From positions 1,488,001 to 1,552,000 of the forward strand of contig JAWMAR010000392.1 in NCBI GenBank assembly GCA_036785375.1: a DNA stretch of 64,000 nucleotides. The letters are read 5' to 3'. A program made the position numbers and the translations under genes. Under the pieces are notes generated by a model, which had not been told where the DNA came from, did no database searches, and saw only the letters and a list, made by a program, of their open reading frames with translations. Origin of the DNA: Leucoraja ocellata. Taxonomy: Eukaryota. This document shows, one piece after another, positions 2,768 to 63,585 of this stretch (positions are counted from its first letter, which is position 1; each line of letters begins with the position of its first letter).

Positions 2768-3712
2768 TTAATTTACAGAATTTAAAATTTTTTCTGCAAA
2801 CGTTCCAGGTTTCATTACTGGCTTATTATAAAATAATTGGAATGTTCTTTCCCCGGACCATCCTGCTGCTTCGAGGACTTGGTCTATAGGTACATCCAAT
2901 TGTATTGCTGCCGATGTAGCTGCAGCCCTGGTGGAATGAGATTTAAAAATGTTAGTATCCACCCCAGCCTGTGTAAGCACCTGTTTCAGCCATCTAGAGA
3001 TGGTCTGGACCGTCACTCTTTTGTGTGGTTGCTTGTGGCTGACCAAGAGTCCCTTCTCATTGCCTCTTAGGTTTTTTGTTTTCTCTATGTATAATGACAG
3101 GTGTCTTACTATACAGAGACGGTCATCTGTAGGGTATGACCTAAATTGTATATTAAGTCCTGCTGATCCCTGTCTGTTCTGCTTTACTAGTTCGTAGATA
3201 TGGAACGTAATATTGTCAGGTGTGGAAGTCATGTTGTCCGGTCTAAGTTTGTGCAGTGACTGTACCCTCTGTGCCGTGACCAATGCCATTAGCATGACTG
3301 TTTTTAAAGTCAGTCTGTGTAGTGACAGAGCTGTTGCTGGGGACCAATTTCTTAGCGTCTTCAGGACAATGCTTACATCCCAAATTTGGGAGTACCTGGT
3401 TTTTGGGGGATTTGTATTAAAGATTCCCCTCATGAGTTTTGTTACCAGGGGGTGTGTCCCTACAGAATAACGCTCTGTCCCTTGCCATAGATAAGTCGAT
3501 AAGGTACTTCTGGCGCTGTTGATGGCACTGTAACTGAACCCCTCATCATAGTGGAGGCCTGCCAGATATTCCAGAACAGACGGGATGTTCATGTTCCTGC
3601 TGGTGATGTTGTTTTTGTGGCAGTACATTTCCCACTTCCTGATATAGACCAGATACTGTTTTTTAGTTGATTGTCTTTGGGCCGCCAAGATCATGTTTGC
3701 TGTTTGGTCCAT
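2768..3712 (-). CDS. DIRS tyrosine recombinase (uninterrupted ORF, 314 aa)
   Basis: N-terminal SAM-like region plus catalytic residues R (AQRVQ), K (VKQ), HxxR (HSTR), W (AGWS) and Y (FYNK). Confidence 0.9.
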   Translation of the reverse strand: MDQTANMILAAQRQSTKKQYLVYIRKWEMYCHKNNITSRNMNIPSVLEYLAGLHYDEGFSYSAINSARSTLSTYLWQGTERYSVGTHPLVTKLMRGIFNTNPPKTRYSQIWDVSIVLKTLRNWSPATALSLHRLTLKTVMLMALVTAQRVQSLHKLRPDNMTSTPDNITFHIYELVKQNRQGSAGLNIQFRSYPTDDRLCIVRHLSLYIEKTKNLRGNEKGLLVSHKQPHKRVTVQTISRWLKQVLTQAGVDTNIFKSHSTRAAATSAAIQLDVPIDQVLEAAGWSGERTFQLFYNKPVMKPGTFAEKILNSVN

Positions 3713-3738
3713 TAGTCCCAGTTGTAGCAGTGGTGTTT

Positions 3739-4200
3739 TTAAACTCTACAAATCAATAAGTTCAAGTATTTATGGCATGGGTGGCTATCCCTTGTTACGG
3801 GATGTAGCAATAAGTCTGGTCTATGTGGGATAGTAATACATGGTTCTAATGCCATGTTTTGTACCACCGGAAACCATAGTTGAATAGGCCAATCGGGTAC
3901 TACCAAAATACCAGGCGCAGAGTCTTGTTGTATTTTCCTTAATACCCGACTGATGAGGCAGAAAGGAGGGAATGCGTAAATGATCAATTTCCCCCAATGC
4001 AGCGAAAATGCATCTGTCGCTGCTGCCCCAGGGTCTGGTTCCCATGAAACATAATTTGGTATCTGATGGTTTAGTCTGGATGCGAATCGATATCTGGTGT
4101 TCCATATTTTGCTGTAATATCAGCAAATACTTTTTTGTTCAACATCCATTCAGTGTTTTCATTAAATTTGCGTGACCTGGTGTCTGCCACTAAATTTAGT
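3739..4200 (-). pseudogene. DIRS DNA N6-adenine methyltransferase-like domain, frameshifted
   Basis: YAFPPF motif followed by LxxVLxKI and LVVPxWPxQxW in ORF 3739-3987, located between RNase H and YR as in DIRS1-group elements. Confidence 0.75.
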
Positions 4201-4286
4201 CTTCCTGGTAGGTAAGTGGCTGATATCCAAATATCTCTCTGGATACACTATTGCCAAATTGAATTAGCCAGATTGTCACATGATAT

Positions 4287-5765
4287 CTATTTGTTTCCAC
4301 CCATGTGGTTAATGTATGCTACCATGGTGGTATTGTCTATTTGTAATCTGACATGCTGGTGATATGACCCAGTACAATATGACTTTAGGCCATGGAATGC
4401 ACCCAACATTTCCAAGTAGTTTATGCCAAATGTGAGTAAAAAAGATGCCTCCTGTGCAGTCCATCTACCTCCACAGCTGGTGATGGTATTGGTGGCTCCC
4501 CACCCAAGTGCACTGGCATCAGTTTGTAGTACCATAGAAGGGTTACTGACAATGATTGGGTTGGAACAAAGCCAGATGTTATCTATCCACCAAATTAGTT
4601 CCATTTTGGCTTTGATTGGTGGTTTCATAGGTCTATCAAAGTGCCCTCCATTAATTTTGAACGCTTGTATTTTTGCTCTCTGTAAGTTTTGGTAATGTAG
4701 AGGTCCAAATTGTGTGGCTGGAAAAGCAGCCACCATTTTACCAATTACTTTTGCTACCAATCTGATGGATGGTTTCCTGATGTCAATGAGGTTATTGCAA
4801 GCCTCTATTAAATCTCTAGCCTTCTCCTTAGGTAGTGTCACCGACATGTGAATTGAGCCAATGGTGAACCCCAAATAGTCCATAGTATTGGAAGGCGTTA
4901 GTTTAGATTTAAGTGGATGGATGATAAATCCCAGTTTTTCAAATAATAGTTTTGTGGCTGTTACTGTTTGTATGGCCAATTCCAAAGTTTTGCCCACAAT
5001 GAGTATGTCATCTAAATACGCCATAACCATGTGTTTACGTTTCCGTAGAAATGCTAGGGTTGTTTTTAAAATTTTTGTGAACAGCCTGGGGGCTGATGAT
5101 AGACCGTTTGGCAGTGCTTTATACTGCCAGTTTTGTCCCATCCAGTTAAATTTTAAGTAACATCTGTGGTCACCTCGTATAGGCACTGTATAGTAAGCAT
5201 CTTTTAAATTGATGCTTGCCATGAAGTAACCTTTGGAAATTAATTGTTTAGCAGTAACAAAGGTTTCCATTTTGAAGTGAATATATTGTACAAATGTATT
5301 CAATTTTGTTAGTTCGATGATGATCCGACAACCACCATCTTTTTTGTTTTTGGTAAATATATTAGACACGAATTCTAATGATTCGTGTGATGTTTCCTCA
5401 ATTACACCTTTTTTGTAAAGCCGCTCCAGTTCTGCTTGTGCCTCTGATTTTTCTTTATCAGAGAGTACTAACACTCGGTTTGGTATATGTTGAACTGGAG
5501 GGCTATACTGGTGTATAAACTCTATTGTATATCCCTGGATACTGCTTAAAATGTAAGTATCAGTTGTTAACATGCTCCATGCATTCAGAAAGTAGTGTAA
5601 TCTCCCCCCAACCTCCATGCTCTCCATATTTTTTAGGGAACCAGACCCACCTACCTCCATTGTTACCAGTGGCAGGTTTACTTCTTTTTGTAGTTCCTTC
5701 GTTGTTGTTGCGCTGGTGTCTGGTTTTTCTGTTTGGTTGGCGTTGGAGGTCCCCGCATCTTCCAA
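4287..5765 (-). pseudogene. DIRS reverse transcriptase/RNase H
   Basis: Motifs LKDAYY, LPNGLSSAPRLFTK, YLDD, TDAS.GWG, INYLE and DNTT. The frame terminates prematurely at HMGGNK. Confidence 0.9.
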
Positions 5766-5799
5766 GAAGGCTGGCCTGTGTCATGGCCTAAAAAAGACT

Positions 5800-11561: not shown

Positions 11562-13400
11562 TAGACAATAGGTGCAGGAGGGCCATTCGGCCCTTCGAGC
11601 CAGCACCGCCATTCAATGTGATCATGGGTGATCATCCCCAATCAGTATCCCGTTCCTGCCTTCTCCCCATATCCCCCGACTCCGCTATAACCATATAACC
11701 ATATAACAATTACAGCATGGAAACAGGCCATCTCGACCCTTCTAGTCCGTGCCGAACACATAATCTCCCCTAGTCCCATATACCTGCGCTCAGACCATAA
11801 CCCTCCATTCCCTTCCCATCCATATAACTATCCAATTTATTTTTAAATGATAAAAATGAACCTGCCTCCACCACCTTCACTGGAAGCTCATTCCACACAG
11901 CTACCACTCTCTGAGTAAAGAAGTTCCCCCTCATGTTACCCCTAAACTTCAGTCCCTTAATTCTCATGTCATGTCCCCTTGTTTGAATCTTCCCTACTTC
12001 CACGTCAACTCTGTCTATCCCTCTCATCATTTTAAAAACCTCCATCAAGTCCCCCCTTAACCTTCTGCGCTCCAAAGAATAAAGCCCTAACTTGTTCAAA
12101 GCCCTATCTTTAAGAGCCTTATCTAGCTCTCTCTTGAAAATATCCAGAGAACCGGCCTCCACTGCCATCTGGGGCAGAGAATTCCATAGGCTCAACACTC
12201 TGCGAAAAAATGTTTCCTCATCACCGTTCTAAATGGCTTACCTCTTAATCTTAAATTGTGGCCCCTGGTTCTGGAATGCCCCAACATCGGGAACATGTTT
12301 CCTGCCTCTAGCGGGTCTAAACCCTTTAAAATCTTAAATGTTTCAATAAGATTCCCTCTCATCCTAAATTCCAGAGTATACAAGCCCAGCCGCTCCATTC
12401 TCTCAGCATATGACAACCCGCCATCCCGGGAATTAACCTTGTAAACCTATGCTGCACTCCCTCAATAGCAAGAATGTCCTTCCTCAAATTAGGTAACCAA
12501 AACTGCACACAATACTCCAGGTGTGGTCTCACTAGAGCCCTGTACAACTGCAGAAGGACCTCTTTGCTCCTTTACTCAACTCCTCTTGTTATGAAGGCCA
12601 ACATGCCATTCACTTTCTTCACTGCCTGCTGTACCTGCATGCTTACTTTCATTGACTGATGAACAAGGACCCCCAGATCCCATTGTACTTCCCCCCCCCC
12701 TTTTCCCAACTTGACGCCATTTAGATAATAATCTGCCTTCCTGTTTTTGCTACCAAAGTGGATAACCTCACATTTATCCACATTAAACTTCATCTGCCAT
12801 GCATCTGCCCACTCCCCCAACCTGTCCAAGTCACCCTGCATTCTCATAGCATCCTCCTCACAGTTCACACTGCCACCCAGCTTTGTGACAACTGCAAAGT
12901 TGCTAATGTTACTTTGAATCCCTTCATCCAAATCATTGATGTATATTGTAAATAGCTGCGGTCCCAGCACCGATCCTTGCGGTACCCCACTAGTCACTGC
13001 CTGCTTTTCTGAAAGGGAACCATTAATCCGTACTCTTTGTTTCCTGTCTGCCAACCACTTCTCTATCCATGTCAACACTCTACCCCCAATACCATGTGCC
13101 CTAATTTTGCCCACTAATCTCCTATGTGGGACCTTATCAAATGTTTTCTGAAAATCCAGTTACATCACATCCACTGGCTCTCTCTTGTCCATTTTCCTAG
13201 TTACATCCTCAAAAAATTCCAAAGATTAGTCAAGCATGATTTCTCCTTCGTAAATCCATGCTGACTAGGACCGACCCTGTTACTGCTATCCAAATGTGCC
13301 GCTATTTCATCTTTTATAATTGACTCCAGCATCGTCCCCACCTCCGATGTCAGGCTAACTGGTCTATAATTCCATTTTTCTCTCTCCAGCCTTTCTTATG
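11562..13400 (-). mobile_element. CR1 LINE (third family, (CTATTGT)n-type tail) with a younger CR1 nested at 11687-12099
   Basis: RT motifs GVPQGSVLGP and DKCEVIHFG in ORF 12572-13114, with frameshifts. Confidence 0.9.
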
Positions 13401-28955: not shown

Positions 28956-29155
28956 NNNNNNNNNNNNNNNNNNNNNNNNNNNNNNNNNNNNNNNNNNNNN
29001 NNNNNNNNNNNNNNNNNNNNNNNNNNNNNNNNNNNNNNNNNNNNNNNNNNNNNNNNNNNNNNNNNNNNNNNNNNNNNNNNNNNNNNNNNNNNNNNNNNNN
29101 NNNNNNNNNNNNNNNNNNNNNNNNNNNNNNNNNNNNNNNNNNNNNNNNNNNNNNN
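28956..29155. other. Assembly gap (200 N)
   Basis: Run of N; true length unknown. Confidence 0.99.
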
Positions 29156-29164
29156 GAATGAGTG

Positions 29165-29630
29165 AGGATTGGGATGGAGGGGATTGGGATGGAGGGGATT
29201 GGGATGGAGGGGAGTGGGATGGAGGGGATTGGGATGGAGGGGATTGGGATGGAGGGGAGTGGGATGGAGGGGTTTGGGATGGAGGGGATTGGGACGCAGG
29301 GGTTTGGGATGGAGGGGAGTGGGATGCAGGGGTTTGGGATGGAGGGGTTTGGGATGGAGGGGATTGGGATGGAGGGGAGTGGGATGGAGGGGTTTGGGAT
29401 GGAGGGGATTGGGATGGAGGGGAGTGGGATGGAGGGGAGTGGGATGGAGGGGTTTGGGATGGAGGGGAGTGGGATGGAGGGGAGTGGGATGGAGGGGTTT
29501 GGGATGGAGGGGAGTGGGATGGAGGGGTTTGGGATGGAGGGGTTTGGGATGGAGGGGAGTGGGATGGAGGGGATTGGGATGGAGGGGATTGGGATGGAGG
29601 GGTTTGGGATGGAGGGGTTTGGGATGGAGT
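29165..29630 (+). repeat. 15-bp G-rich minisatellite GGGATGGAGGGG(ATT/AGT/TTT), about 31 units
   Basis: Visible tandem array that produces spurious open frames on both strands. Confidence 0.97.
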
Positions 29631-29759
29631 GGAGTGGCAGGGTAGGGATGGCAGGGAGTGGCAGGGTAGGGAGTGAGATGGAGGGTTCAATGCTGTAAGA
29701 ATGTGGGACAGGGGAGTGGGGTGTAGGCAGTTGTGTAAAGGTGAGTGGATAGAATGGGA

Positions 29760-30147: not shown

Positions 30148-30223
30148 ATGGAAAGCTGTAACGTAGCTGTATCACTCCTGCTCGCCGTCTTGTCTCTCTG
30201 CTCTGTGTCGGGAGACCACGCAG
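30148..30223 (+). CDS. MHC class I-like heavy chain, exon 1 (signal peptide)
   Basis: Strong Kozak context ccaagATGG. Encodes MESCNVAVSLLLAVLSLCSVSGDHA plus 1 nt, a hydrophobic leader. Donor cag|gtaag, phase 1, joins in frame to the alpha1 exon. Lies at the end of a CpG-rich unique region. Confidence 0.8.
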
Positions 30224-41022: not shown

Positions 41023-41271
41023 ATTCCCACAGCTTGATATATTTCGCCACCTCCTCCCTCAGTGTCCCTGACCTGCCAGACTTCGCCAGGGTTGGGATGT
41101 TGGATGATCTGCAGATAGATTACTACGACAACTCCCTCGAAGAAGTGGTACCCAGGCAGCAGTGGATTGCGAGCGGCTTCATGGCTGAGTACTGGGCACG
41201 GCAGAAGATGATCGCAGACATCATTCACACGATTGTGTCTAAACAATTGGGAACACATGCCCAATTGCTCG
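41023..41271 (+). CDS. MHC class I-like heavy chain, exon 2 (alpha1 domain)
   Basis: Pyrimidine tract and cag acceptor at 41020-41022; donor g|gtatgt; phase 1/1. Encodes DSHSLIYFATSSLSVPDLPDFARVGMLDDLQIDYYDNSLEEVVPRQQWIASGFMAEYWARQKMIADIIHTIVSKQLGTHAQLL, matching class I alpha1 motifs (SHSLxYF, PxFxxVGxLDDxQIxYYD, PRxxW, EYW). Confidence 0.93.
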
Positions 41272-41559
41272 GTATGTGTCATTGTACCCCTCTCAGGCTC
41301 ACAGTAAATTTCACCTTGCCAAAATATCCGCTATCAGATGGATCCGATGAAGCAGCAGAAATTCCGTCCCCTGCTTTGGAATATGGGAGGAAACTGGACG
41401 GAGGCACCCGGAGAAAACTCATGCTGCGTGGTCATAGTGAGCATGTACAAATTCCGTGCAGTGTGCCCATTGCCCTCATTGTCAGGATCGAACCCGGGTC
41501 TCAAGGCAGCAATTCTACCGCTGCCCCATCATGCCAACAACTTTGGTCTCAATGCGATC

Positions 41560-44090
41560 GCCCTGCTCTACATACACACTGATGCACACTACACCATCTC
41601 ACACTGTGATTCCCCTGCTCTATATACACACTGATGCACACTACACCATCTCTCACTGTGATTCCCCTGTTCTATATACACACTGATGCACACTACACCA
41701 TCTCACACTGTGATTCCCCTGCAGTATAAACTGATGCACACTACACCATCTCACACTGTGATTCTCCTGCTCTATATACACACTGATGCACACTACACCA
41801 TCTCACACTGATCGCCCTGCTCTATATACACACTGATGCACACTACACCATCTCACACTGTGATTCTCCTGCTCTATATACAAACTGATGCACACTACAC
41901 CATCTCACTGTGATTCCCCTGCACTATACAAACTGATCCACAGTACGCCATCTCTCACTGTGATTCCCTTCTCCGCCCATGATGATGCACTGTACACTCT
42001 CTCTCACTATCGCCTGCACTATACACATACTGATGCACAGTACATCATCGCTCACTGTAACCCCTGCTCTATGCACACTGATGCACAGTAAACCATCTCA
42101 CTGTGATCCCCTGCTTTGCCCATACTGATGCACAGTACACCATCTCTCACTATCCCCAACACTATATAAACTGATGCACAGTACACCATCTCTCACTGTC
42201 CCCTGCATTGTACACACAATGGATTAACACCGGGTGGCAGTGTACGATGGCAGCCTCGCCAACAGTCTGTGATGTCCTTTTCTTCTTTTGTTGTTTTTAG
42301 TCCGTTATCAAATGCATATTTTAGTGTATTTTCAATTTTGTATTATGTTGGGGGGGGGGCTTTAAAAAATCTCTTTCCTCGACGGAGATGCAACTTTTTC
42401 TGTATCGTAAATCCGTCCACACTGCAGCCTAACATCGTGCAGCTGACGGTCTCTTGGTTTGGGGTCGACTTCGGGAGCTCAAACCGCAGGAGATTCGACC
42501 GCCCCGATGCGGGAGCTTCATCTCCGGCTGCGGGAGCTTCCATCACCCCGACTGTGGATGGTTCAACTGCCCCGCAACCGCGAGGGAAAAGCAGGGAAGA
42601 AGATAATACGCTATTGCCTTCCATCCCATCACAGGGGTGGATGTATATGTGAATTTCTATGTTGTTTTATGATTTTTTTTGTAAGACTGTATGGAAAATC
42701 AAATTCTTTGCATGTTTTTACATACTTGGCGAATAAATTAATTACAACTAGAATTACAATGATGCAATGCACACCATCTCACTGTAATCCCTTGCTTATA
42801 CACACCCTGACACACAGTACACCATATAACCATATAATATAACCATATAACAATTACAGCACGGAAACAGGCCATCTCAACCCTTCTAGTCCGTGCCGAA
42901 CACATAATCTCCCCTAGTCCCATATACCTGCACTCAGACCATAACCCTCCATTCCCTTCCCATCCATATAACTATCCAATTTATTTTTAAATGATAAAAA
43001 CGAACCTGCCTCCACCACCTTCACTGGAAGCTCATTCCACACAGCTACCACTCTCTGAGTAAAGAAGTTCCCCCTCATGTTACCCCTAAACTTCAGTCCC
43101 TTAATTCTCATGTCATGTCCCCTTGTTTGAATCTTCCCTACTCTCAGTGGGAAAAGCTTTTCCACGTCAACTCTGTCTATCCCTCTCATCATTTTAAAAA
43201 CCTCTATCAAGTCCCCCCTTAACCTTCTGCGCTCCAAAGAATAAAGCCCTAACTTGTTCAACCTTTCTCTGTAACTTAGTTGCTGAAACCCAGGCAACAT
43301 TCTAGTAAATCGCCTCTGTACTCTCTCTATTTTGTTGACATCCTTCCTATAATTAGGCGACCAAAATTGTACACCATACTCCAGAATTGGCCTCACCAAT
43401 GCCTTGTACAATTTTAACATTACATCCCAACTTCTATACTCAATGCTCTGATTACCATCTCACTGTAATCCCCTGCTTATACACACCCTGACACACAGTA
43501 CACCATCTCACTGTAATCCCCTACTCTATATACACACCCTGACACACAGTACACCATCTCACTGTAATCCCCTGCTTATACACACCCTGACACACAGTAC
43601 ACTATCTCACTGTAATCCCCTGCTCTATATACACACTCTGATCCACAGCACACCATCTTACTGTAATCCCCTTCTTATACACACCCTGACACACAGTACA
43701 CCATCTCACTGTAATCTCCTGCTTATACACACCCTGACACACAGTACACTATCTCACTGTAATCCCCTGCTCTATATACACACCCTGACACACAGTACAC
43801 CATCTCACTGTAATCCCCTGCTTATACACACCCTGACACACAGTACACTATCTCACTGTAATCCCCTGCTCTATATACACACCCTGACACACAGTACACC
43901 ATCTCACAGTAATCCCCTACTCTATACACACCCTGACACACAGTACACCATCTCACTGTAATCCCCTGCTCTATACACACCCTGACACACAGTACACCAT
44001 CTCACTGTAATCCCCTGCTCTGCCCACAATCATGCACGGTGTACCCTCTCCTATTTGATCCCCTGCTCTGCACACAATGATGTGAGTGCA
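41560..44090 (+). repeat. 48-52-bp minisatellite in intron 2, interrupted by two insertions
   Basis: Units ctgatgcacactacaccatctcacactgtgattcccctgctctatatacaca (41560-42215) and ccctgacacacagtacaccatctcactgtaatcccctgcttatacaca (42760-44090). Inserts at about 42232-42740 and 42821-43453. Confidence 0.92.
42821..43453 (-). mobile_element. CR1 family B inside the minisatellite
   Basis: ORF 42914-43420 and tail. Confidence 0.92.
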
Positions 44091-44305
44091 CACACAGCCC
44101 CTCTCCATGATCATTCCCCTGTGTACCCACTCACCCTGGCTGTACACATTTGCTCACCGTGATCACAGATTGTTTGAGACACTTTGTGCTGTACCACCAC
44201 CCACGATGCTGCATTCACTCCACCCTCAGCCCCCGCTCTAGCACCATACCCTCACTACAGTCTGCTGCCCCCTGCATCTCGTGGTGACACAGTGCAGGTC
44301 GCATT

Positions 44306-44673
44306 TAGAAACATAGAAAATAGGTGCAGGAGTAGGCCATTCGGCCCTTCGAGCCTGCACCTCCATTCAATATGATCATGGCTGATCATCAAACTCAGTA
44401 TCCTGTACCTGCCTTCTCTCCATACCCCCTGATTCCTTTAGCCACAAGGGCCACATCTAACTCCCTCCTAAATATAGCCAATGAACTGTGGCCTCAACTA
44501 CCTTCTGTGGCAGAGAATTCCACAGATTCACCACTCTCTGTGTGAAAAATGTTTTTCTCATCTCGGTCCTAAAAGATTTCCCCCTTATCCTTAAACTGTG
44601 TGACCCCTTGTTCTGGACTTCCCCAACATCGGGAACAATCTTCCTGCATCTAGCCTGTCCAACCCCTTAAGAA
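44306..44673 (-). mobile_element. CR1 family A (intron 2)
   Basis: Family A tail and 3' sequence. Confidence 0.9.
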
Positions 44674-44951
44674 CCCCTTCCGTGTTTGGTATGTGTAAAA
44701 TGATTATGTTGCACAGATCTGGAGTTTAAAGCCATCTCTAATTGTAACACACAGTATAGGGGTACAGCAGGTTGGTAGTTGTTAGTTCATCACTACCACT
44801 TCCAAGACTACTTAATGTAGGAAGTGGGTGTTAATATAAAGCATACAGTAAGGTGGGGTTAGTGTTGCTACTCTACTATGCTTGGTTCACATGCATTAAC
44901 CAATCTACAGTAGGGAATAGCTTCTCATACATGACAAATGGTTCTTTACAG

Positions 44952-45221
44952 GTATCACCTACTTCCAGACGATTTGGGGCTGCACACAGTCTGAAAATAT
45001 GAACCATCTGTTTGTAAAGTTTAACATCCAAGACCTCGGTGCGATTGAGTGTGATCTGGTCACAGTGAACTGTTCCGCCACTGGTATCTTTATAATCTTG
45101 AACGATCCAAGCACCTTACAGCCTTTCGTTAATAATGCTGCGGTTCAAGCAGTGAACAACAGCTGCATTCCAGACTTACAGGAAGCTCTTCAGCTTGGTG
45201 AGGCGGCACTCGAGAGGAGAG
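44952..45221 (+). CDS. MHC class I-like heavy chain, exon 3 (alpha2 domain)
   Basis: Acceptor tttacag, donor g|gtaggt, 270 nt, phase 1/1. Encodes GITYFQTIWGCTQSENMNHLFVKFNIQDLGAIECDLVTVNCSATGIFIILNDPSTLQPFVNNAAVQAVNNSCIPDLQEALQLGEAALERR. Retains QxxxGC (C101), C164 and the terminal GxxxLERR. Confidence 0.88.
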
Positions 45222-47092: not shown

Positions 47093-48327
47093 GTAAGTTA
47101 CTAGGGAAATTGACGAGGGTAAAGCAGTGGTTGTTGTCTATATGGACTTTAGTAAGGCCTTTGACAAAGTTCCTCATGGAAGGTTGGTTAAGAAGGTTCA
47201 ACTGTTGGGTATAAATGCAGGAATAGCAAGATGGATTCAACAGTGGCTGAATGGGAGAAGCCAGAGGGTAATGGTGGATGGCTGTTTATCGGGTTGGAGG
47301 CAGGTGACTAGTGGGGTGCCTCAGGGATCTGTGTTGGGTCCTTTGTTGTTTGTCATGTACATCAATGATCTGGATGAAGGTGTGGTAAATTGGATTAGTA
47401 AGTATGCAGATGATACCAAGATAGGGGGTGTTGTGGATAATGAAGAGGATTTCCAAAGTCTACAGAGTGATTTAGGCCATTTGGAAAAATGGGCTGAAAG
47501 ATGGCAGATGGAGATTAATGCTGATAAATGTGAGGTGCTACACCTTGGCAGGTCAAATCAAAATAGGACGTACATGGTAAATGGTAGGGAATTGAAGAAT
47601 ACAGTTGAACAGAGGGATCTGGGTATAACCGTGCATAGTTCCTTGAAGGTGGAATCTCATATAGATAGGGTGGTAAAGAAAGCTTTTGGTATGCTAGCCT
47701 TTATAAATCAGAGCATTGAGTATAGAAGCTGGGATGTAATGTTAAAATTGTACAAGGCATTGGTGAGACCAAATCTGGAGTATGGCGTACAATTTTGGTC
47801 GCCCAATTATAGGAAGGATGTCAACAAAATAGAGAGAGTACAGAGGAGATTTACTAGAATGTTGCCTGGGTTTCAACAACTAAGTTACAGAGATAGGTTG
47901 AATAAGTTATCTTTATTCCCTGGAGCGCAGAAGGTTAAGGGGGGACCTGGTAGAGGTATTTAAAATGATGAGAAGGATAGACAGAGTTGATGTGGACAAG
48001 CTTTTCCCTTTGAGAATAGGGAAGATTCAAACAAGAGGACATGACTTCAGAATTAAGGGACAGAAGTTTAGGGGTAATATGAGGGGGAACTTCTTTACGC
48101 AGAGAGTGGTGGCGGTGTGGAATGAGCTCCCAGTGGAAGTGGTGGAGGCAGGTTAATTGGTATCATTTAAAAATAAATTGGATAGGCATATGGATGAGAA
48201 GGGAATGGAGGGTTATGGTATGAGTGCAGGCAGGTGGGACTAAGGGGGAAAAAAAATTTGTTCGGCATGGACTTGTAGGGCCGAGATGGCCTGTTTCCGT
48301 GCTGTAATTGTTATATGGTTATATGGT
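47093..48327 (+). mobile_element. CR1 family B, longest copy (intron 3)
   Basis: RT motifs DFSKAFDKV, GVPQGSVLGP, YADD; frameshift near 47915; tail ends about 50 nt before the alpha3 acceptor. Confidence 0.95.
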
Positions 48328-48380: not shown

Positions 48381-48650
48381 TTGTTCCAGGGGTGACAGTG
48401 TTGAAAAGGGACAAAGGCGAGGGGCTCCGGTGTGTCATCACTCCCTTTTACCCCCGCACCATCAACGCCACTTGGCTGAGGAATGGGCAGGCCGTCTCCA
48501 ATGCCATAAACAAGATCCTTCTACCAAACCACGATGACACGTACAGGATGGAACTGCTCATCGAGCTCCACGGCCAAGATCCAAAGATGTACAGCTGTCA
48601 GGTCCAGCACAGCAGCCTGCCAGAGACGCTGACAATGACACTGAGGGGAG
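48381..48650 (+). CDS. MHC class I-like heavy chain, exon 4 (alpha3, Ig C1-set)
   Basis: Acceptor tcttccccag, donor g|gtaagt, 270 nt, phase 1/1. Encodes VVPGVTVLKRDKGEGLRCVITPFYPRTINATWLRNG...LLPNHDDTY...YSCQVQHSSLPETLTMTLRG with C1-set hallmarks (C-x4-FYP, W, PNxDxTY, YxCxVxHxxL). Confidence 0.95.
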
Positions 48651-53871: not shown

Positions 53872-54922
53872 ACATAGAAACATAGAAATTAGGTGCAGGA
53901 GTAGGCCATTCGGCCCTTCGAGCCTGCACCGCCATTCAATATGATCATGGCTGATCATCCAACTCAGTATCCCGTACCTGCCTTCTCTCCATACCCCCTG
54001 ATCCCCTTAGCCACAAGGGCCACATCTAACTCCCTCTTAAATATAGCCAATGAACTGGCCTCAACTACCCTCTGTGGCAGAGAGTTCCAGAGATTCACCA
54101 CTCTCTGCGTGAAAAAAGTTCTTCTCATCTCGGTTTTAAAGGATTTCCCCTTTATCCTTAAGCTGTGACCCCTTGTCCTGGACTTCCCTAACATCGAGAA
54201 CAATCTTCCTGCATCTAGCCTGTCCAACCCCTTAAGAATTTTGTAAGTTTCTATAAGATCCCCTCTCAATCTTCTAAATTCTAGAGAGTATAAACCAAGT
54301 CTATCCAGTCTTTCTTCATAAGACAGTCCTGACATCCCAGGAATCAGTCTGGTGAACCGTCTCTGCACTCCCTCTATGGCAATAATGTCCTTCCTCAGAT
54401 TTGGAGACCAAAATTGTACGCAATACTCCAGGTGTGGTCTCACCAAGACCCTGTACAACTGCAGTAGAACCTCTCTGCTCCTATACTCAAATCCTTTTGC
54501 AATGAAAGCTAACATACCATTCGCTTTATTTACTGCCTGCTGCACCTGCATGCCTACCTTCAATGACTGGTGTACCATGACACCCAGGTCTCGCTGCATC
54601 TCCCCCTTTCCCAATCGGCCACCATTTAGATAATAGTCTGCTTTCCTGTTTTTGCCACCAAAATGGATAACCTCACATTTATCCACATTATACTGCATCT
54701 GCCAAACATTTGCCCACTCACCCAGCCTATCCAAGTCACCCTGCAGTCTCCTAGCATCCTCCTCACAGCTAACACTGCCCCCCAGCTTAGTGTCATCCGC
54801 AAACTTGGAGATATTGCCTTCAATTCCCTCATCCAGATCATTAATATATATTGTAAATAGCTGGGGTCCCAATATATATTAATGATCTGGATGAGGGAAT
54901 TGAAGGCAATATCTCCAAGTTT
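53872..54922 (-). mobile_element. CR1 family A with 5' fold-back
   Basis: ORF 53964-54872 (FADD motif) uninterrupted, with an inverted duplication at the 5' junction. Confidence 0.93.
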
Positions 54923-63287: not shown

Positions 63288-63373
63288 GTGTTGGTGGGCC
63301 ACGTGATGCATTTGGAGCTAGTTACATGCTGGTGCTCGTGGCTACGCTTGTGATGATCATTGGAACATGGTAG
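63288..63373 (+). CDS. MHC class I-like heavy chain, exon 5 (linker plus hydrophobic C-terminus and stop)
   Basis: Acceptor ...ttgcttgctgggcag. Phase-1 reading gives GVGGPRDAFGASYMLVLVATLVMIIGTW*(TAG 63371-63373). It sits in one of the few non-repeat islands downstream of alpha3, and the exon continues to a consensus donor ag|gtgagt at 63414/63415. An intervening small exon cannot be excluded. Confidence 0.7.
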
Positions 63374-63509
63374 AGAAGAGCAGCAATGAGGAGAGAGGTC
63401 AGGTGTGATAACAGGTGAGTGAGCGCATAGACTCCTTCACTAAGACTCGATGATGTGACAAACTCTCTTCTCATTTATGATCCAATCTATTCTCATTTCT
63501 CTTTTCCAG

Positions 63510-63585
63510 ATGAACATCTGGTCCTCATCCGAATACTGGATGAAGCTTCTACCTGTTACAATGATGAGTGGCTGTATACCTCATC
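63510..63585 (+). other. Probable terminal (3'UTR) exon start of the class I-like gene
   Basis: Strong acceptor ttctcatttctcttttccag ending at 63509, pairing with donor 63415 (95-nt intron). The 3' end is not determinable; no polyA signal was identified. Confidence 0.45.

Follow-up and report, generated by a model that had tools for sequence, protein, structure and literature searches.

An intact UFA gene in the skate Leucoraja ocellata: a class I-like molecule with few peptide anchors, a probable lipid-binding groove and a tail-less end

What does a class I-like molecule carry when its groove has lost most of the residues that hold a peptide? This question is raised by a 64,000-nt stretch of the Leucoraja ocellata genome (assembly GCA_036785375.1, contig JAWMAR010000392.1, positions 1,488,001 to 1,552,000, forward strand; hereafter the window), in which two stretches had been marked, from the letters alone, as a hydrophobic groove of possible CD1-like function (hereafter the original prediction). 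These stretches are exons 2 and 3, encoding the alpha1 and alpha2 domains, of a single plus-strand gene (30148-63373) that is intact, has five exons and encodes a 316-residue product. The evidence on balance favours an intact skate member of the elasmobranch lineage UFA that has lost seven of nine peptide anchors, is likely to carry lipid as CD1 does, and ends without a tail in a stretch predicted to be exchanged for a glycosylphosphatidylinositol (GPI) anchor. As UFA has already been named, crystallised and reported to bind lipid, the lipid inference for the skate gene is not new, and the finding as first written rediscovers, without recognising it, a known lineage and matters little; the gene does add a batoid test case with a different groove floor (R24/D34).

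Gene structure and membership of UFA

The coding sequence (join 30148-30223, 41023-41271, 44952-45221, 48381-48650, 63288-63373) comprises 951 nt with one stop and is interrupted by four GT-AG introns. The layout was obtained by aligning the homologue P0001 to the window by tblastn. The alpha1 and alpha2 exons (249 and 270 nt) have exact borders with AG/GT flanks in phase 1. The features of the gene are as follows:

30148-30223, plus strand: coding part of exon 1, ATG and signal peptide (judged by eye), 25 codons plus 1 nt; placed by tblastn of P0001, a GT donor and a frame open through all exons
41023-41271, plus strand: exon 2, alpha1, 83 codons; Pfam MHC_I at E 2.5e-9, top PDB match 8GM8 at E 1.3e-17
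44952-45221, plus strand: exon 3, alpha2, with the canonical C101 and C164, an extra, lineage-specific cysteine pair and sequons at precursor positions 148 and 177; matches 8GM8
48381-48650, plus strand: exon 4, alpha3 C1-set immunoglobulin domain; Pfam C1-set at E 2.7e-13, tblastn of P0001
63288-63414, plus strand: exon 5, encoding G-V-G as candidate site of GPI attachment, a polar spacer and 15-16 hydrophobic residues, with the TAG stop at 63371-63373 and 41 nt of 3' untranslated region (UTR)
63415-63509, plus strand: 3' UTR intron of 95 nt, GT-AG; the next exon is non-coding and begins at 63510

In a single contig from run X1, presumed to be RNA, the last part of exon 4 continues directly into exon 5 and on past the stop, and the 95-nt intron beyond it is skipped. 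The donor of that intron lies 41 nt past the stop, within the distance that usually spares a transcript from nonsense-mediated decay. No second class I gene, such as the UDA and UEA genes that share the MHC class Ib cluster with UFA, was found in the 64-kb window.

The full protein matched 8GM8, titled shark nonclassical class I UFA, far better than any other PDB entry (E 2.1e-72, followed by the UGA structure 9CH4 at E 1.3e-34). The same structure ranked first by fold in Foldseek, and UFA was the nearest reference across all three domains. The alpha2 exon alone had no Pfam match, and 8GM8 (E 4e-14) was its sole PDB match at E<=10; together with the Pfam matches of alpha1 and alpha3, this E-value shows that the class I likeness is not due to chance. 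Searching for homologues of the alpha2 exon gave two proteins out of 57 candidates, P0001 at 99% identity and a second at 87%. Over 316 residues, the skate protein differed at 7 positions from P0001, at 10 from XP_055521808.1 (Leucoraja erinacea) and at 37 from XP_032903622.1 (Amblyraja radiata), and the latter two share its length and C-terminus.

Two marks, which are our own reading of the alignment and not a published definition, further tie the gene to UFA. An extra pair of alpha2 cysteines, HLA 126 and 133 (142 and 149 of the precursor), was present without exception in the 11 UFA proteins aligned, whereas both cysteines occurred together in none of the 44 non-UFA class I rows; labelled UFA sequences have this pair and a short alpha1 end without N86, both as in the skate gene. 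In a quick, midpoint-rooted tree, which held neither an identified CD1 row nor the labelled nurse shark UFA sequence, the shark and ray UFA rows formed one clade (14 rows; Shimodaira-Hasegawa approximate likelihood-ratio test, SH-aLRT, 100). The gene is thus almost certainly the skate member of this known lineage.

Nurse shark UFA (8GM8; Gcirratum_UFA, PMC10751288, supplementary file 10) is the closest known molecule by sequence and fold, and resembles the skate protein in its short alpha1 end, extra alpha2 cysteine pair and lost anchors, although the two share only 43-44% identity and the shark has M24/E34 in place of R24/D34. Assignment to UGA does not agree with the distant score of 9CH4 or with the separate UFA group in the tree: UGA, also reported to be CD1-like (PMC12562908), is 29-30% identical, and UGA-like rows keep more anchors (five of nine in four of five rows), lack the extra cysteine pair and, unlike UFA, end in a membrane helix with a basic cytoplasmic tail. 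These rows joined UFA at SH-aLRT 97 in the midpoint-rooted tree without CD1.

The skate protein would be expected to adopt the class I heavy-chain fold, with the extra alpha2 cysteines forming a disulfide (126-133). Pairing with beta2-microglobulin is inferred from the retention of F8, T10, Q32, R48, Q96 and P235, with positions 117-122 changed.

Several observations concern variation among UFA sequences. The P0001 cluster, drawn at >=90% identity, contains 42 distinct sequences; in 15 of these, the same variants recur in different, mosaic-like combinations. This diversity exceeds the expectation for a single-copy gene, and its source could be alleles, paralogues or assembly chimeras. At least two UFA copies are present in sawfish (P0003 and P0005), and on sawfish chr34 genes sharing product names with these two (matched by name only) adjoin each other among MHC-Ib genes. 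Four ray gene models (P0032, P0178, P0177 and P0062) are shorter UFA forms lacking alpha2 or both groove domains, and may be splice forms or annotation artefacts.

The tail-less C-terminal end

The original prediction overlooked the C-terminus, where G-V-G, a polar spacer and 15-16 hydrophobic residues are followed directly by the stop, leaving no cytoplasmic tail. Most UFA rows share this end, with 0-3 residues beyond the hydrophobic window in 12 of 13. In GPI signals, the omega and omega+2 positions are occupied by small residues and lie 17-31 residues before the C-terminus. A home-made rule, built on such features and written after the sequences had been seen, was passed by 14 of 17 UFA proteins, in each case with the site at G-V-[G/S], 22-27 residues before the C-terminus, whereas none of 44 other class I proteins passed; those UFA proteins that failed were two isoforms predicted in Narcine and one gene model from bamboo shark. 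With an N-terminal leader (judged by eye) and a hydrophobic C-terminal stretch without a tail, the skate protein has the general layout of a GPI-anchored precursor. We lean towards a GPI anchor for skate UFA, whereby the C-terminal 20-27 residues would be cut and GPI added, or at the least the molecule would have no sorting tail. The 8GM8 chain stops at alpha3 and is hence uninformative on the anchor. Nothing relevant to a GPI-anchored or tail-less UFA was found in the literature searched, the primary UFA, UDA and UEA papers, which may describe such an end, being outside its scope.

The strongest competing explanation, unlikely in our view, is that UFA binds lipid as proposed and is held by a short, uncleaved, tail-less membrane helix, or is shed in soluble form. 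In the model, residues 296-315 form one unbroken helix that could cross a thin membrane, the GPI call depends on an unvalidated home-made rule, and two predicted Narcine isoforms (P0004 and P0021) have no hydrophobic end. Nevertheless, the hydrophobic stretch of 15-16 residues has a mean hydropathy of 2.0-2.8 and no basic stop-transfer residues, whereas membrane-bound class I rows reach about 2.6-3.9 and possess a tail. Shark and skate sequences also conserve G-V-[G/S] at a suitable distance.

A GPI-anchored or tail-less UFA would remain on the cell surface, where it would exchange its lipids, and would not cycle through lysosomes. Most CD1 isoforms, in contrast, sort by cytoplasmic tail motifs (PMC2193123); with no cytoplasmic tail, skate UFA has no CD1-type endosomal targeting motif (a motif also absent in CD1a). 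Engineered GPI-CD1d is described as staying at the surface (PMC6876220), presenting surface-loaded lipid and failing on lysosome-loaded lipid; UFA, if its GPI-like end is real, would be the natural counterpart of this construct. Such an end would also bear on whether lipid presentation started at the cell surface, with endosomal sorting as a later addition.

Mouse Qa-2, ULBP/RAE-1 and MILL are GPI-anchored class I-like molecules. If the prediction holds, skate UFA would resemble them in carrying a class I-like ectodomain on such an anchor; none of them is known to present lipid. It is conceivable, though we lean slightly the other way, that UFA has been a natural GPI-anchored lipid presenter since the shark-ray split and is the oldest CD1-like lineage sampling surface lipids without a cytoplasmic sorting signal, with UGA as its tailed partner. 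Elasmobranchs would then have used anchor type to divide the surveillance of lipids between the cell surface and the interior, as CD1 isoforms do by tail motifs.

As a side observation, the frame beyond the stop (63374-63414, plus strand) encodes two arginines and 12 further residues before another stop is reached at the exon junction. It resembles a vestigial or read-through cytoplasmic tail; the DNA is purine-rich and the likeness may be due to chance.

Anchors and character of the groove

Of nine peptide anchors (placed in HLA-A2 numbering through a published alignment and the 8GM8 alignment), the skate gene keeps two, Y7 and Y59, and so departs from classical class Ia (UAA), which is recognised by all nine. 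The anchor region reads L84 (or a gap), A123, N143, S146, T147, A159, D167 and A171. The original prediction of retained Y7 and Y59, an absent T143/K146/W147 and A/D/A at 159/167/171 was thus borne out, as was the non-classical status drawn from it. Its leucine at position 84 depends on the alignment chosen: the alpha1 exon has 83 codons, the published alignment has a 7-column gap there, and the position may be a gap. The short alpha1 end also accounts for the loss of the N86 glycan site.

The groove had also been called hydrophobic, which held in part. Over 39 groove positions, the Kyte-Doolittle mean was 0.82 in nine UFA rows against 0.09 in 14 classical-like rows (p 1e-4; skate 0.93), whereas on the Fauchere-Pliska scale the two groups were equal (0.79 and 0.80; p 0.83; skate 0.72). 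This comparison covered 23 of the 57 rows, with four near-duplicates and 30 other rows set outside. The alpha1 helix face was more apolar in the skate on both scales (0.73 vs 0.06 and 0.78 vs 0.55), while the floor was equal on one scale (1.00 vs 0.99) and the alpha2 helix face was small, not greasy (skate mean 106 vs 168 cubic angstrom). UFA rows also had fewer Tyr/Trp (3.7 vs 9.5) and smaller side chains (143 vs 157 cubic angstrom) than classical-like rows, contrasts that are partly circular as membership of the classical-like group was itself decided on the anchors. The hydrophobicity of the groove is therefore scale-dependent, and the clearer change is the loss of Tyr/Trp together with the small alpha2-helix residues.

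Skate UFA probably carries lipid in a cavity opened by this loss. By analogy with the shark orthologue, the replacement of Tyr/Trp by small and aliphatic residues would create the cavity, which would be filled with self lipid in the endoplasmic reticulum. UFA was described as very similar to CD1 in its binding region and biophysical features (PMC10751288, citing unpublished data), and a review citing personal communication (PMC12562908) states that its crystal structure and mass spectrometry point to CD1d-like lipids. Because the gene belongs to this lineage, the earlier guess of a CD1-analogous function is probably right. Two points qualify it: the hydrophobicity argument is weaker than first put, and the lipid support is second-hand and comes from a shark protein 43-44% identical to the skate one. 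Purely as a proposal, the lipids may be shown to innate-like T cells or to natural killer (NK)-type receptors.

Likeness to CD1 (chicken CD1-1, 3JVG; human CD1d, 6V7Y) and EPCR lies in the class I fold, lost anchors, low polymorphism and reported lipid cargo. Identity to skate UFA is 19-22%, and CD1 tied with classical class I in fold Z-score against the skate model. Pfam MHC_I_3 did not match P0001, while 28 of the 57 rows matched it at E<=0.01, four UFA rows among them. CD1 is marked by deep hydrophobic A' and F' pockets, which the present comparison addresses at residue level, through the hydropathy and volume figures above. CD1 orthology has been called challenging to assess (PMC10751288).

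The original prediction also overlooked R24 and D34, at predicted floor positions of skate alpha1. In 9 of the 13 UFA rows a basic residue at 24 accompanies D34, and the two stingray rows have M and Y at these positions instead, so that a buried ion pair specific to most batoids is possible. Such a pair could partly plug the batoid groove and make UFA a receptor or NK ligand, or a binder of small amphipathic molecules, with lipid a filler or absent, as in HFE, FcRn, ULBP and ZAG. This explanation is improbable, given the CD1d-like lipids reported in both UFA and UGA (PMC12562908) and the small alpha2-helix residues, which imply more room, not less. A divergent, open-ended peptide presenter, for which speak Y7, Y59 and the peptide-binding chicken and duck class I molecules that head the Foldseek list after 8GM8, is very improbable given seven lost anchors affecting both groove ends, UFA membership, and the lack of groove-focused polymorphism among 16 sequences of 95.3-99.7% identity (5/40 vs 12/133 positions; p 0.55).

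Repeats and mobile elements in the window

On the minus strand (2768-5780), a frame for reverse transcriptase (4287-5780) precedes one for tyrosine recombinase (2768-3745), an arrangement that looks like a DIRS-type retrotransposon. Fragments of reverse transcriptase of the long interspersed nuclear element type, which we take to be CR1-like, occur throughout the introns and flanks (12572-13159, 47097-47963, 53964-54878 and many shorter ones). The alpha1-alpha2 intron contains two tandem arrays of ~50-nt units (41547-42214 and 43454-44021), and a further array with a 15-nt unit (29166-29637) adjoins a gap of 200 N (28956-29155), ~500 nt upstream of the start codon.
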